A DNA stretch of 64,000 nt from an uncultured Muribaculaceae bacterium (GTDB lineage: Bacteria; Bacillota_I; Bacilli_A; RF39; UBA660). Positions within the stretch are counted from its first letter, which is position 1; each line of letters opens with the position of its first letter. The stretch is taken from NCBI GenBank assembly GCA_964560085.1, contig CAZLKF010000004.1, forward strand, positions 15,554-79,553, written 5' to 3'. Below, one piece after another: positions 51,001 to 57,000 of this stretch. The position numbers are program-made.

Positions 51001-54000
51001 ATAATATGGCAAGAAAAACTTTAGCAGATTTTAATTATAATTATCAGGCTTATGCAGATTATTTGGAATCACCTGAATGTGCAAATGATGAAGGGTATGA
51101 TACTTATGGTGATGCTAACGGCAACATTTATGAATCAGATGATTGGACAAAAGGTCATGGTCATCGAAATACCAACAATAACTATAATCGTGACAAAGAC
51201 GATGATAAAAGTAAAGGCAGAAGTTGGAAAAATCCTTGGTTAAAATATGCAGACAAATTAAATTTAACACCGGAAGAAATACAAATGTTAGATGCATTAT
51301 ATAACTATCAACAAGCAAATAAAAATATAGAAGTACAAGAAGTAGAAAACTATTCAAAAAAAAGATAAAATGAAACATAATGAAGTAAAGTAAAAATGAT
51401 TTGTATGGAAAATGTATTAAGATTGATTTACAATAAAACAGTTAAAAATGAAGTTCTAAATTTAAAAGATATAGAACAAATTTTAGAACTATTGATAGTT
51501 AATAAGGACTTGAACAAATACATTTTAAATATAGATGTTCAACCAATAAGAAGCAATAATCTTGCTTCTTATTCTAGCTATACAAAAAATATAACCATAT
51601 ATGCAGAAATGATCAAAAAAATGATTGAAGATATAGAGATGAATATTTTAAATGCTAATGAATTTGAAGTAATGTTATATAAGAATTTATCTATCTTGCA
51701 AATTTTATTGCATGAAACTGAACATGCAAATCAACAAAAGATAGCAGATAACGATAATAATTTAGAAGCTTTTATTATCAGATTATCATATTTAGTTGAT
51801 AATGCTTATGAAGATGAAATTTACGAATATTGCCCAGAAGAAAAATTGGCTGAAGTTAAATCTTTTGAAGAAATAATAGATTTAATGAAATACTTAGAAA
51901 AAGAATCGATTAGATTACCAGAAATATTTGATATAGAAAGATTAAACAGATTATTAAGAGGGTATCATTACATTGACTCTCACTTAAACATCCCACTTGA
52001 AACATATTTTACGATGGCCAAAAGACAAGATCTATTTTGTTATGTTGATTTGAGTCTTAATCTATCTAGTACTAATTTCAATGCTTCTCTTACTAAATAT
52101 AAACTACAAGAAAGGCTAAGATATGGATTTCCAATATCGGAGTTGGAGTATGGAACATCTATGAGAAAACTAGTTTTATCTTTAAATAGAAATTTTAAAA
52201 ATAAAACTAATGTTAGATTAAAATAAGAAATGTGATATACTAATCATAGTTAGGAGTGATTTTAATGAAAATATCCTTAAAAGACTTACAATATAATCGT
52301 AAAGGCGAGAAATATGAAGACGGGTATAGAGTTGTTTATTTTACAGAAAATAATTATCATGTAGGTGAATATTGTAAAACAATTGAAGGATTTATGATAG
52401 GTTTTGCCGAAAATGATCCTATTATTGATGAAGATGATATTCCTCCATTTGTTTCAATAGATGATTTGTTAGATAGGTATCTGGATGCTTTAAAAGACAA
52501 AACATCAGTAGCTTTATATAAAACTGATGGGACATGTGTGGCTTCAAAAAAAAGAAGTGATACAAAAACCCGTTAATAATAGTCTAATGTATGTTTGATT
52601 ATTAAGATACCAAAAAAGGTATCTTTTTTATTTAAAAAGAACGATAGACATATTTAAAATAGCAAATTATGTTGTGTAATATAATTAATAAAAAAATTAT
52701 ATAGATAAAGCATACAAAAGAATGTTTATTGTGAATAAATGAGATTTGTACATGAATATCAATTAAATTATTAAAATATTTGAACCATTGTATAGATTAA
52801 ATAAAGTTTTTGTCAGAATAAACTTAGAAGAATTTGCTTCTGTAAGAAACTTGAAATTAATTGATTCTTCTCAAAAGAAAAAATTATGAGAGATAATATT
52901 AAAATATTGTTTTGAATATGTAAATTTGACTACTTAACATATATTTGTTAAAATTAGTGTGAGGAGGGTATGTTATGACAATAATTAACGAATCTGACAA
53001 AAATATTGCAGAAGAAATGTTCACTAGTACAACTGTTAATAGTTGCGAAACTGATGGCGCTTCTTGTGGTTGTGGGAACTAAAAAGTAAACTTCAAAAGT
53101 TTACTTTTTAGTTTATTTTTTGATAGGAGGTTTTTACATGTATCATAAATCACAATATAATTATATTTATAAAAAAAGTAAAAATTTATGGGTTATTTAT
53201 AATACTTTTAGCGGAGCAATATTGACGATAGACGATAGTAAAAAGAAAGATTTTGATTTATTGGATGATTATAAAATAGAGAGTAATTCTCATTTTATTG
53301 AACAACTTATAAAACAGGGAATATTAATAGAAAATAATTTTGATGAGAAATTAATGATAGATGCCAGCAGAGCAAGGAGAACGTATGGGGAAAAGTCTGC
53401 TTATTTAAGAATATTAACCACAACTGCATGTAATGCTAGATGTGAATACTGCTATGAAAAAGACTTCAAAAAAATTACAATGAGCGAAAAAACTGCTAAA
53501 AATGTTATAAAATATATAAATAATTTGCCAAAGATGGAAAAATTTTATATTCATTGGTTTGGTGGAGAACCACTATTAAATACTAAAGTGATTGATCAAA
53601 TAATGAATGCCACATATGACAGATTAATCAAAAATGGTACCAAAGTGTTTGTATATTTTACATCTAATGGCTCATTATTGGATAAAGAAATGGTAAAGAA
53701 AGCAAAGAATATTTGGCATGCAACATATTTTCAAATAACTATAGACGATTTATATGAAAAATATGATAATATTAAAAATTATGTAAACAAAAAATATAAC
53801 TATAATAGAGTTATAGAAAATATACTCTTTTTATTAGAAGAGAATATACAAGTAATATTGAGAATGAATTATTATCCAAATGAGGTGCTTAAAATTAAGA
53901 GAATTGTCGATGAACTATCTCTCAAATTTTCAAAATATGTAGAATCTAGTCTTATTATGTTTGATCCAGCTCCAATTTTTGAGACAAATTCAACATCATG

Positions 54001-57000
54001 TTCAAACTGTAATAGAGTTTATAATATGAATGAACCGGCGAAATATTTGATAGAAAAGAAATTAGCTAAAGAAGAGGATGCCTTAAATTTAAAATTTAAA
54101 GGTGGTCAATGCTATGCTTGTCATCAAGGTAGTTTTGTTGTCTCTCCCCAAGGTGACTTATATAAATGTACAGTAACAATGAATGATAAAAATGCAAAAG
54201 TAGGGAATGTAGTAATGGGAATTGAAAGAAATAGATATTATTATAAATGGGTAAATCCAAAATTACCAAAAAAATGTGATAAATGTATTTTTTTACCTTT
54301 ATGTCAAGGTGGCTGCCGAGCTGGAGAATTAGGTTATTTAAGTATTTTTTGCAAAAGAAATTTATCCGAAGTAAAAGAAATAATAAATTATAAAGTAGAT
54401 AAAGCATTTAGAAATTCTATTAAACTAATTGAATTGAAAGATTATATAAATAATGATTTATATCAGATGTATCAAGATATACCTCCACAAGAAACAGGCT
54501 CAACAAATAAATTATTCGGAGTAACTTTTGATGAATTTAAATTAATCTGTGAAAATATGATTAAAGAAGAGACTGTCATTAATGAAGATATAAATACTAC
54601 AACAAAAAGATTTATATTATTAGTTAATTCCAATCCAATAGGTGAAGTTGGAATTAGAACAACTCAAAATGATTTTTGGGTAAATAGAGGAAGTCAAATA
54701 TACTATAAAATTAAAAAATCAGAACGTGGAAAAGGTTATGGAAATATTATTTTAAAGTTAGCGTTAGAAAAAGCAAAAGAAATGAACTTTAATCAGATAA
54801 GAATAAATTGTGATAACAATAATATTCCTTCCAAGAAGGTGATAATTAAAAATGGTGGAAAAATAGATATAGCAGATTACAAAACAAAAGATGGTTATAG
54901 TTCAAGTTATATAATAGGTATAAATGAAAAATAAAGAATTATTTTTAAATCAATTATATAATGATATTTCAAATATAAAAAATATCAAAATAAATATTTA
55001 TATTGAAGAGATAAAGGAAAATCAATTAGAATATTATTATTTTAATAGAATAGTACACAAATATAATGAACATTTTGGTGTTAGAATAGATATGGAATTT
55101 TCTGAAAACTCATATTCTGAAAGCTTTGATTTTGTTAATTATAATGAAGCAAAAAACAGAATATATATATTTATAAATAAATACGTTGATTATCAATCGT
55201 TAACTTTAAAACCCAAAAAAATCATGTTTAAAAGAATTAAAAAGAAATATAGATTTTTATCCAATTCGAAAAAATATCAAATTTGTGAAAATGTAAAGAG
55301 AAAAATAAACTATGCTCATGATTTTAAATTATCATTTTACGAAAAAAAAGAAAATCTCTTTATATTAAATAATCAAAAAGAATTCATATTTAATATAAAA
55401 AATTTTTATTCAAAGATAATGTTGCATACTATATATAATGGAGTGAAATCTTTTGATCAAATGCTTTTCAATAGAGGCTACACAAACTTGAACGCAACTA
55501 AAATAAATGATTTTATAGAAAAATATAATTATAATAATTTTATAAAGCATAATAGTAAACCATTAGTGGATGGTAACTATGATTTAATTTTTTCTAATAA
55601 ATGTGGAACTGTTTTTCACGAAATGTTCGGTCATAATTTAGAGCATGATTTAATTGACTCATTAGACAAAAAAATTTTTATAAAAGGAAGTAACATAGGG
55701 AACAAATTAATAACATATATTGATGATCCGAAATTTTTAAATTTATTGAATGTTTCTTATAACTGTTATGGCGATAATCGTAATAAAAAAGTATTAATAA
55801 AAGATGGCACAGTAATAGATTTTCTTATTAATGATTCTCTGAGAAGTGAAAATTATAAATATCATCCGACAAGTAGAATGTCAAACACTTATTTAAAGCC
55901 AATTAAAAATTTTAGTAAATTAGACATAGATAAATTAAAAAAAGTAATTTATATAAAAAAAATTAAGAATGGTAGATTATATCTAGAAAAGCAAAAATTT
56001 AAAATTGAAATTGATTGTGCTATTCTTTATGAAAATGGGAAGGTGACTTCATACATATCTAATATATCTTTTATTGTAGATGTATTTGATTTTATATCTA
56101 AAATCAAATACATAGGAGATGATTTAGATTTTGTTCCAACAGTTTGTGGGGCAAAAAGCGGTAATATTTTTGTATTTGCAGGTTGTCCAACGACATTTGT
56201 AACTGATATTAATATAATACAAAATAATTAGCATATCTATATAGAAAATAAGATTATATCTATAAGTTATTAACAATTTTGAATAGAATAAAATATAGAT
56301 TATTTTAAACGAGGTTGTTAATTAATTTTTCAACCAAGATATATAATAAAAAATATTATTCAGAATTCAGAGCCAATAAAAGTTGGTTCTTTTTTGTGTT
56401 ATGCTTATATAAAGTGAAATATCTTTATAAAAAACGGACTTCAAGTTCTCTAATTCCTTGAAAAATAAGGTTAATTCAGAATCAGTACATGCGATATTTA
56501 AAATATATTATAATAAAAGAAAGGAGTGATAAATATGCTAAACAGCAAAGAAATTTATAGAAAGGAGGATTTTTATGGAAAAGATACTTTTGTTTGGTGA
56601 AAAAATTTGTAATATGGAAGGTAGTACAATAGATGTTATTAAAAGTTTAACAAAACATGATTTCTTTATATATTCTGTTGCAATAGATAATAATAGAAGA
56701 GAGATTTATACAATTGTTGCTCGAATAATGTTCTATAAATTTCATGGTCTTAGAGATTCAACATCAGAAGATGTATTGAACTTTTTAGTTTCACATAATA
56801 ATATAAACATTGATACTCAAGAATATAAGGATATTGTCAAGTGTTTGGACTATTTAACAATATGTTTTCCCAAAAAATATTGTTATCTTTATAATGCTGA
56901 AACTGCTAAAAAACATTACTTGTTTGAAAAAAGTTCATGGGTATTATCATTATTTATGTTTGTTGATAATTTGATGAAAGAATACTTGTTAGTTGGTCAT

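Follow-up and report, generated by a model that had tools for sequence, protein, structure and literature searches.

Does a 35-codon open reading frame (ORF), followed by genes for a radical S-adenosylmethionine (rSAM) enzyme and a TldD-type protease, make a modified peptide and, if so, of what kind? The question is raised by a locus in the 64,000-nt stretch of DNA that we analysed, here called the window (positions 15,554 to 79,553 of contig CAZLKF010000004.1, assembly GCA_964560085.1, forward strand), from an uncultured low-GC (~27%) member of the Bacilli found in human-gut samples. Among named relatives of the ParC homologue, the closest come from metagenome-assembled genomes called 'Bacilli bacterium', at ~64–65% identity. 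A sequence-only reading of the window had proposed a cluster for a peptide made by ribosomes and modified after translation (a RiPP). The locus is a real, self-contained three-gene cassette of ~3.3 kb (3.5 kb including both terminators), which encodes a small conserved peptide, an rSAM enzyme fused to an acetyltransferase of the GNAT type and the cassette's own TldD-type protease. It is very probably an rSAM-dependent RiPP cassette, and we consider it likely that its product is a thioether-cross-linked, probably N-acetylated peptide of 13 residues whose leader is trimmed by the TldD homologue. The features of the cassette, in window coordinates, are as follows.

52604..52625, + strand: terminator-like hairpin and T-run that ends the preceding gene; 5′ boundary of the cassette
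52926..52954, + strand: promoter TTGACT-17-TAAAAT with a TG extended −10
52962..52967, + strand: ribosome-binding site (RBS) AGGAGG, 7 nt 5′ of the ATG at 52975
52975..53082, + strand: precursor peptide gene, 35 aa; putative leader 1–22, putative core 23–35
53076..53124, + strand: intra-operon hairpin (53076–53114, 18 bp) and T-run, between the precursor and enzyme genes
53138..54934, + strand: putative bifunctional maturase gene, 598 aa, with a region resembling a RiPP recognition element (RRE) and with radical-SAM, SPASM and GNAT domains
54419..54931, + strand: GNAT (Acetyltransf_3-type) domain inside the maturase gene
54924..56231, + strand: stand-alone TldD-type (M103) metalloprotease gene, 435 aa, overlapping the maturase gene by 11 nt
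56369..56390, + strand: terminator-like hairpin and T-run; 3′ boundary of the cassette

First, the short ORF is a genuine gene under strong purifying selection. It lies where the sequence-only reading had placed it and encodes MTIINESDKNIAEEMFTSTTVNSCETDGASCGCGN; the four Cys ascribed to its C-terminal 13 residues have to be corrected, as the tail quoted, NSCETDGASCGCGN, is 14 residues long and has three. Across 15 distinct 35-codon DNA versions, the ratio of nonsynonymous to synonymous variation (pN/pS) is 0.20 overall, 0.12 in the core and 0.26 in the leader, and variable sites are distributed 17/13/32 over the three codon positions. Identity is 81% within the ORF compared with ~40%, the random level, in the 120 nt upstream aligned without gaps. 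Ten residues are invariant (M1, S23, C24, E25, D27, S30, C31, G32, G34 and N35), nine of them in the last 13, and the peptide ends at the invariant Asn. The boundary between leader and core was set by conservation alone; it gives a putative core of residues 23–35 (SCETDGASCGCGN; consensus SCExD(G/A/S)(A/V)SCGxGN-COOH), preceded by a conserved leader of the form M-T/I-I-I/V-N-E-S-x-K-x-I-x-E-E-M-F-T-S. Of the three Cys in the window peptide, two are conserved (C24 and C31). With this composition, a length of 35 aa and no match to any NCBIfam or Pfam model even at E values up to 10, the precursor lies outside the SCIFF pattern, as had been noted before. Core-motif strings were not found in the searchable literature, whose coverage is incomplete.

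Second, peptide and enzyme are linked. Every intact homologous locus that includes upstream DNA keeps the short ORF beside the enzyme, as one of 34–35 codons located 36–132 nt upstream. As a test in the reverse direction, a degenerate DNA pattern for SCExDxxSCGxGN-stop was scanned over the metagenome collection and over viral contigs. It matched nine metagenome contigs, in all nine cases at the end of such an ORF with an rSAM homologue 36–132 nt downstream; the viral contigs gave 0 matches, and so no sign of a phage-borne cassette. This linkage and the 9/9 motif-based recovery support the RiPP-type cluster first proposed, with a Cys-containing precursor, an rSAM/SPASM maturase and a TldD-type protease.

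Third, operon signals recur across loci. Terminator-like sites are enriched (4 found against 0.5 expected in 4.2 kb), and two of them bracket the operon. Promoter-like hexamers are not enriched in the local AT-rich DNA (41 found against 39.3 expected from shuffled sequence), so the promoter at 52926–52954, which the sequence-only reading had called and which additionally has a TG extended −10, is credible only because its position is kept across loci: in ~12 distinct homologous loci, the best −35/−10 match ends 18–22 nt 5′ of the start codon, usually in a TTGAC(A/T/C)-17-TAnAAT-like form and often with TG, in flanks that are otherwise unalignable. The strong RBS called at 52962–52967 is present, and (A/G)GGAGG is conserved across the homologous loci. 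The hairpin within the operon likewise stands (free energy −18.7 kcal/mol, z −4.6; none of 200 shuffled sequences reaches this stability). A hairpin and T-run follow the precursor ORF at this position in almost every distinct locus, weakly in one (L007), and the stem sequences differ strongly in distant loci (L014, L015 and L017); the element is probably a partial terminator or an mRNA-stabilizing stem. The maturase and protease genes overlap by 11 nt (ATG at 54924, stop at 54932–54934), not by the 4 nt of the ATGA-type overlap read before.

Fourth, the motifs and folds of all enzymatic modules are intact. The maturase has 598 aa from the ATG at 53138 (604 aa from a TTG at 53120) rather than 599, and its C-terminal ~170 residues are a GNAT domain that had gone unnoticed; an RRE-like region (~1–85), the radical-SAM core (~86–300), the SPASM region (~320–410) and the GNAT region (~428–598) follow one another. 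The radical-SAM match in Pfam has an E value of 8.1e-20, and the CX3CX2C motif (C98/C102/C105) is kept in all but one of the 121 homologues aligned. Eight Cys of the SPASM region (C325, C328, C344, C380, C383, C389, C393 and C405) are conserved in 34/34 close homologues and include the CX2CX5CX3C pattern as C380-x2-C383-x5-C389-x3-C393; with 44.7 bits, the enzyme also passes the cutoff (27) of TIGR04085, the SPASM domain model. The Cx3Cx2C motif and full SPASM Cys set reported earlier are thus confirmed. An AlphaFold (AF2) model of the maturase is confident (mean predicted local distance difference test score (pLDDT) 92.7, predicted template-modelling (TM) score 0.84), and its best solved fold matches are CteB (5WGG), then TigE, the anaerobic sulfatase-maturating enzyme (anSME), SuiB, SkfB (6EFN) and ChlB; a sequence search of the PDB returned CteB as the sole match (1.4e-12). 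Residues 1–85 form a confident beta-strand/helix domain in the predicted model, hidden Markov model alignments to TIGR04463 and CefB begin at residues 4–8 and the structural alignment to CteB spans 475 columns, all consistent with an N-terminal domain that appears, from the model, to be RRE-like. Enzyme homologues in gut metagenomes and metagenome-assembled genomes form 19 full-length clusters of 62–85% identity and ~14 shorter ones of 42–68%, and when 1.84 billion representatives (at 50% identity) were scanned exhaustively, 641 of them reached E ≤ 1e-30 with the maturase.

The GNAT domain matches Acetyltransf_3 (E = 1.7e-7, 32.4 bits against a cutoff of 25.4), its predicted model matches the folds of SpeG, RimJ and other N-acetyltransferases, and the acetyl-CoA motif R530-x-x-G533-x-G535 is invariant in 20/20 fused proteins. 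In L015 and L016, whose rSAM enzyme is 46% identical, the same type of GNAT is a separate 166-aa gene directly after the rSAM gene. This pattern of gene fusion and fission argues for a functional link between GNAT and rSAM enzyme, with fusion or adjacency kept from 46% to 85% rSAM identity. The whole rSAM–GNAT fusion is covered by only one 50%-identity cluster of the same scan (P0012).

The third gene encodes, as the sequence-only reading had it, a TldD/PmbA-family metalloprotease with the motif HEMFGHNLEHD. H232, E233, H237 and E240 never vary among the TldD-homologue sequences, at least 90% of which also have C408; in Escherichia coli TldD, the HEAVGHGLE and VCG segments correspond to these catalytic residues in the alignment. 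The predicted model (pLDDT 91.1) superposes on the TldD chains of 5NJ5 with TM scores of 0.80–0.82, ranked above the TldE/PmbA chains. The homologues form a tight clade of 15 clusters (44–100% identity), outside which generic TldD/PmbA proteins score 93 bits at most, down from 329, and the scores against the curated TldD/PmbA equivalog models lie below cutoff (58.2 bits against 635 and 43.7 against 513). All clade members whose locus was examined directly follow an rSAM–GNAT gene, including the copy in a decayed cassette described below (L028). No second TldD/PmbA-like gene, that is, no TldE partner, occurs in any cassette examined.

Counted as distinct lineages, the cassette occurs in several forms. 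Precursor, rSAM–GNAT and TldD genes are together in ~7–8 lineages (window/L003, L001, L002, L021, L004–6, L009, L013 and L024/26); precursor and rSAM–GNAT without TldD in three (L007/8, L010–12/27 and L022); precursor, rSAM and a separate GNAT in one (L015/16); and precursor and rSAM alone in two (L014, probably with L020, a contig that breaks off inside the rSAM gene, and L017/18/23/25). Because some lineages have no GNAT or TldD, we take peptide and rSAM enzyme to be the obligatory pair and GNAT and TldD to be accessory. No flanking gene is common to the loci, which makes the cassette itself the conserved, mobile unit.

How might these parts work together? A single promoter would drive the precursor gene, and the hairpin and T-run behind that gene would leave precursor mRNA in excess over enzyme mRNA, a common arrangement in RiPP systems. 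The RRE-like domain of the maturase would bind the conserved leader (residues 1–22), and the radical-SAM/SPASM core would abstract a hydrogen atom from an acceptor residue. C24 and C31 would then be joined to E25 or D27 and/or to the C-terminal N35, which would close thioether rings within the peptide, of the ranthipeptide (non-alpha) type. E25 lies at +1 and D27 at +3 of C24, and N35 lies at Cys-x3-acceptor distance from C31, the spacing also seen in the CSANDA repeat of freyrasin (PapA). The regiochemistry, ring topology and order of steps are those that we propose, and judging by sequence, the scale tips modestly towards non-alpha thioethers as the cross-links. In ranthipeptides, Cys is bonded to a beta or gamma carbon, that of Asp, Asn or Thr, and QhpC together with the known ranthipeptides uses such carbons of Asp, Asn, Glu or Thr (PMC8326336).

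Where present, the TldD homologue would thread the free N terminus and cut the leader away bit by bit until it meets the cross-linked core, as a pencil sharpener would; on balance we favour this role as leader peptidase. RiPP leaders are threaded into TldD/E and degraded until a modification bars the way, a mechanism shown with microcin B17 (PMC10885120, PMC5810440), and BipI is a TldD encoded in a biosynthetic gene cluster that works without TldE (PMC12707348). The fused GNAT would N-acetylate an amine, most plausibly that of the newly exposed N terminus, a step to which we give even chances.

Comparison with characterized systems places the cassette near, and outside, the known ranthipeptides. 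PapB/freyrasin, NxxcB/NxxcA, CteB/thermocellin and other SCIFFs likewise pair an rSAM/SPASM maturase, there with an RRE, with a short Cys precursor, and CteB is the closest solved structure to the cassette maturase. Ranthipeptide systems and the non-RiPP enzyme QhpD form Cys–Asp, Cys–Asn and Cys–Glu thioethers (PMC8326336); the cassette has, as a feature of its sequence, invariant Asp, Glu and Asn near Cys. It differs from the ranthipeptide systems in having a GNAT fused to the maturase and often its own TldD. The precursors differ as well: that of SCIFFs has ~45 aa and six Cys, whereas that of the cassette has 35 aa and two conserved Cys, and the six-fold CSANDA repeat of freyrasin is not found in the 13-residue core, where two Cys and the C-terminal Asn are conserved. 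Among curated maturase models, the best are TIGR04463 (rSAM_vs_C_rich, 162 bits), NF038107 (CefB, Cys-every-fifth, 140 bits), TIGR04280 (geopeptide, 136 bits) and TIGR04334 (Clo7bot, 114 bits), by name maturases of short or Cys-rich peptides, which align nearly end to end (residues 4–13 to ~395–429) and have cutoffs of 400–600, so that the enzyme is a member of none. PapB (NF047865) scores 125.8 bits against a cutoff of 340, and the SCIFF maturase (TIGR03974) lower still, at 65.7 bits against 425. The TldD homologue has the M103 fold, HExxxH motif and Glu and Cys ligands in common with E. coli TldD; it is 16% identical to it in the structural alignment, and its clade has a ~12-residue deletion relative to generic TldD. 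E. coli TldD and TldE are two partners, whereas the cassette TldD has no TldE in the cassette, as with BipI of the biphenomycin cluster (PMC12707348). The GNAT domain, which has the fold and acetyl-CoA motif of RimJ/RimI/SpeG-type GNATs, is distinguished by its fusion to the C terminus of an rSAM/SPASM enzyme. Overall, the cassette appears to work like a ranthipeptide or Cys-rich-peptide rSAM/SPASM system and belongs to no curated family. A limited literature search found no cluster-encoded TldD paired with an rSAM/SPASM maturase of the thioether type and, with incomplete coverage, no combination of radical SAM, GNAT and ranthipeptide or SPASM. The C-terminal Asn and a mention of TldD suggested a relation to nitrilobacillin, which has a C-terminal nitrile; the enzymes are unrelated. 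A search with PADLOC models of defence systems gave the rSAM enzyme a generic radical-SAM similarity to viperins (43 bits) and the TldD homologue nothing, and this candidate was rejected.

Several observations weigh against a thioether peptide made in this way. The third Cys of the window peptide is variable (C, S, G or I in homologues). None of the NCBIfam family cutoffs for maturases (340–600) is reached, either by the enzyme or by its relatives at 37–46% identity, and sequence similarity among SPASM maturases fixes neither the type of reaction nor the carbon attacked. Roughly half of the lineages have no TldD, and the roles of GNAT and TldD could be unrelated to N-terminal capping or leader removal. 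Relatives of the GNAT domain at 52–66% identity (P0299, P0318, P0301 and P0400) stand alone or in other fusions, with an APH-type phosphotransferase (P0301) and with a reverse transcriptase (P0400, RVT_1 and GNAT); the module is promiscuous and may have a substrate other than the peptide. Finally, across the loci examined, the cassette has no constant companion among transporter, immunity or regulatory genes. Because no exporter or immunity gene is linked, an intracellular or signalling role is possible in place of that of a bacteriocin, and the product may be either antimicrobial or a signal.

The question that bears most directly on the chemistry is which carbon is attacked. Cross-links from Cys sulfur to the alpha-carbon (sactionines) would make the product a sactipeptide within the same cassette logic, and the regiochemistry is unreadable from sequence. 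Sactisynthase systems have the architecture predicted for the maturase, RRE–rSAM–SPASM, and likewise a short Cys core, SkfB is among the fold matches and CteB was originally described as a sactipeptide enzyme. Nevertheless, we consider this unlikely: the best curated scores go to PapB-like and Cys-rich-peptide maturases (126–162 bits), the 25 best-scoring families, which extend down to ~39 bits, include no sactisynthase model and the invariant candidate acceptors near Cys are Glu, Asp and Asn, as in ranthipeptides and QhpC (PMC8326336).

Slightly less probable still is a different radical reaction, such as epimerization, a C–C or C–O cross-link, oxidation of Cys or Ser or remodelling of the C terminus, with a product that could be a small metabolite or cofactor released by TldD, as with mycofactocin or pearlin. 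SPASM enzymes are diverse, and SuiB, EpeE, anSME and TigE are among the fold matches; the invariant part of the peptide is just 13 residues and reaches the C terminus; no exporter or immunity gene is linked; and pearlin clusters, which release a small molecule, hold TldD-like enzymes (PMC10885120). Against this, two invariant Cys with invariant acidic or amide residues beside them are the mark of thioether RiPPs, Cys-rich peptides are the substrates of all the nearest families and no part of the cassette, such as a dehydrogenase or carrier, suggests use as a cofactor.

About equally improbable is that GNAT and TldD form a protecting and activating pair that acetylates and deacetylates, or that the GNAT is a self-resistance or unrelated enzyme. 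The only NCBIfam matches of the GNAT domain are weak ones to the antibiotic-resistance N-acetyltransferases Sat2, Sat4 and ArsN1, the fusion of this module to an APH kinase elsewhere could be read in the same way, and the title of reference 135 in PMC10885120 places N-deacetylases in the TldD/E family. However, the metalloprotease residues and the full fold match E. coli TldD, several lineages keep the GNAT without TldD, which is incompatible with an obligatory pair, and the GNAT stays fused or adjacent to the rSAM enzyme across 46–85% rSAM identity.

That the enzyme is an anSME or other maturase of proteins and the short ORF a chance ORF in AT-rich DNA has a negligible probability, for although anSME structures fit the fold well and sulfatase-fold proteins are encoded in the window and in L009, the anSME model (TIGR03942) scores 51.6 bits against a cutoff of 349, the sulfatase-fold proteins are LtaS-like and motif-less, with the window copy 35 kb away, and purifying selection acts strongly on the short ORF, which always lies beside the enzyme. 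These membrane-anchored proteins (window 16899–18974, + strand; L009 2932–4776) have no C/S-x-P/A-x-R formylglycine motif and so are not substrates of a sulfatase maturase; the neighbourhoods hold no cognate sulfatase motif, in agreement with the sequence-only reading, which had not assigned the enzyme to that family. The combination that this reading had named as its refutation, an anSME-like enzyme with a cognate sulfatase nearby and a short ORF that is not conserved, is not what the loci show.

We therefore return to the thioether-forming RiPP cassette and to what it would add. Systems of a precursor and an rSAM/SPASM maturase are well known, and uncharacterized families of them are numerous; this one is set apart by its GNAT fusion, by a dedicated TldD clade that has no partner and by a very short core that ends in an invariant Asn. 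If the proposed chemistry is true, the enzyme is a new bifunctional radical-SAM/GNAT maturase, of which we found none described in the literature searched, and the TldD homologue is a dedicated TldE-independent leader peptidase in a thioether RiPP pathway, the sole such peptidase found elsewhere being that of the unrelated biphenomycin. The product would then be a cross-linked peptide of 13 residues from bacteria known only by human-gut metagenomes. More tentatively, and with odds somewhat against it, the cassette may represent a novel class: a 13-residue bicyclic thioether peptide, cross-linked and N-acetylated by one maturase and trimmed by a partner-less TldD that stops at the cross-link, in a minimal pathway confined to uncultured human-gut Bacilli and possibly yielding an intracellular or signalling molecule. 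The cassette is compact and easy to express heterologously, which makes it a cheap route to a new macrocycle scaffold, and it offers a way into the role of exporter-less Cys-peptide systems in gut anaerobes. Nothing established is overturned by it.

Distant relatives of the enzyme (37–39% identity) also follow short Cys/Asp-rich peptides, MIILNEGITCEDVKKSDNYSICGCDSAGCSCDSDTILPEDSCGFHN in Amedibacillus dolichus and MLILKDTCRNCLGDLEIIEMNCGCDYCECSCDSDTII in L030. In A. dolichus (JAUDCG010000016.1; L029 3744–6516), two tandem rSAM/SPASM genes (416 and 423 aa) lie behind a gene for a 46-aa Cys/Asp-rich peptide, and both stay below the NCBIfam cutoffs; since the species is a named one, this related, uncharacterized system could be a tractable model.

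Some loci carry further genes beside the cassette. In L010 (6614–11621) and L028 (773–3485), it lies next to hybrid histidine-kinase/response-regulator and acyltransferase genes, which could be a hint of signalling or a coincidence, two loci being too few to tell. The cassette of L028 (3557–6293) is decayed: its rSAM–GNAT gene is 5′-truncated (484 aa, without the RRE-like region and CX3CX2C), there is no precursor gene and a truncated response-regulator gene adjoins the cassette copy, whereas the TldD gene is intact. L017 and L018 hold, ~2 kb from the cassette and beside a DDE transposase gene, an unrelated second rSAM/SPASM gene (1539–2853, − strand; 356 aa) with its own acidic, Trp-rich peptide of 47 aa, MTNGVEILEEIINENVGYSNCSWEDDNGAYHDSGWNESWPDGYHGDD.

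The flanks of the cassette in the window were annotated with PHROGs, Pfam and NCBIfam. Downstream, 56575–63673 (+ strand) is mobile-element-like, with a 224-aa ORF of unknown function, a PcfJ-like gene (57461–58984), a DnaB_C-like ATPase gene (59148–60071), a second, stand-alone GNAT gene (60127–60699), a NERD nuclease gene (61794–62507) and further unknowns. Just upstream, a 276-aa ORF (51396–52226, + strand) with an HETEH (HExxH) motif has no significant family match and no homologue in the other loci. Among all flanking ORFs, the only similarity to other loci is a weak match (31%) of the DUF2383-like ORF in L004 and L005; because these ORFs have no homologues beside other cassettes, the surrounding island is context and not part of the system. 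A gene 44 kb upstream (7012–9147, + strand; 711 aa) encodes Peptidase_C39, ABC_membrane and ABC_tran domains, as in PCAT-type exporters of bacteriocins or double-glycine peptides, with no indicated link to the cassette. The T-box and asnA gene noted earlier upstream of the cassette are found at 49136–49376 (+ strand) and 49616–50584, and a second T-box (11416–11593, + strand) precedes a class-I Glu/Gln-type tRNA synthetase gene (11611–13266), followed by a tRNA gene (13306–13379); both T-boxes are ordinary housekeeping regulation.

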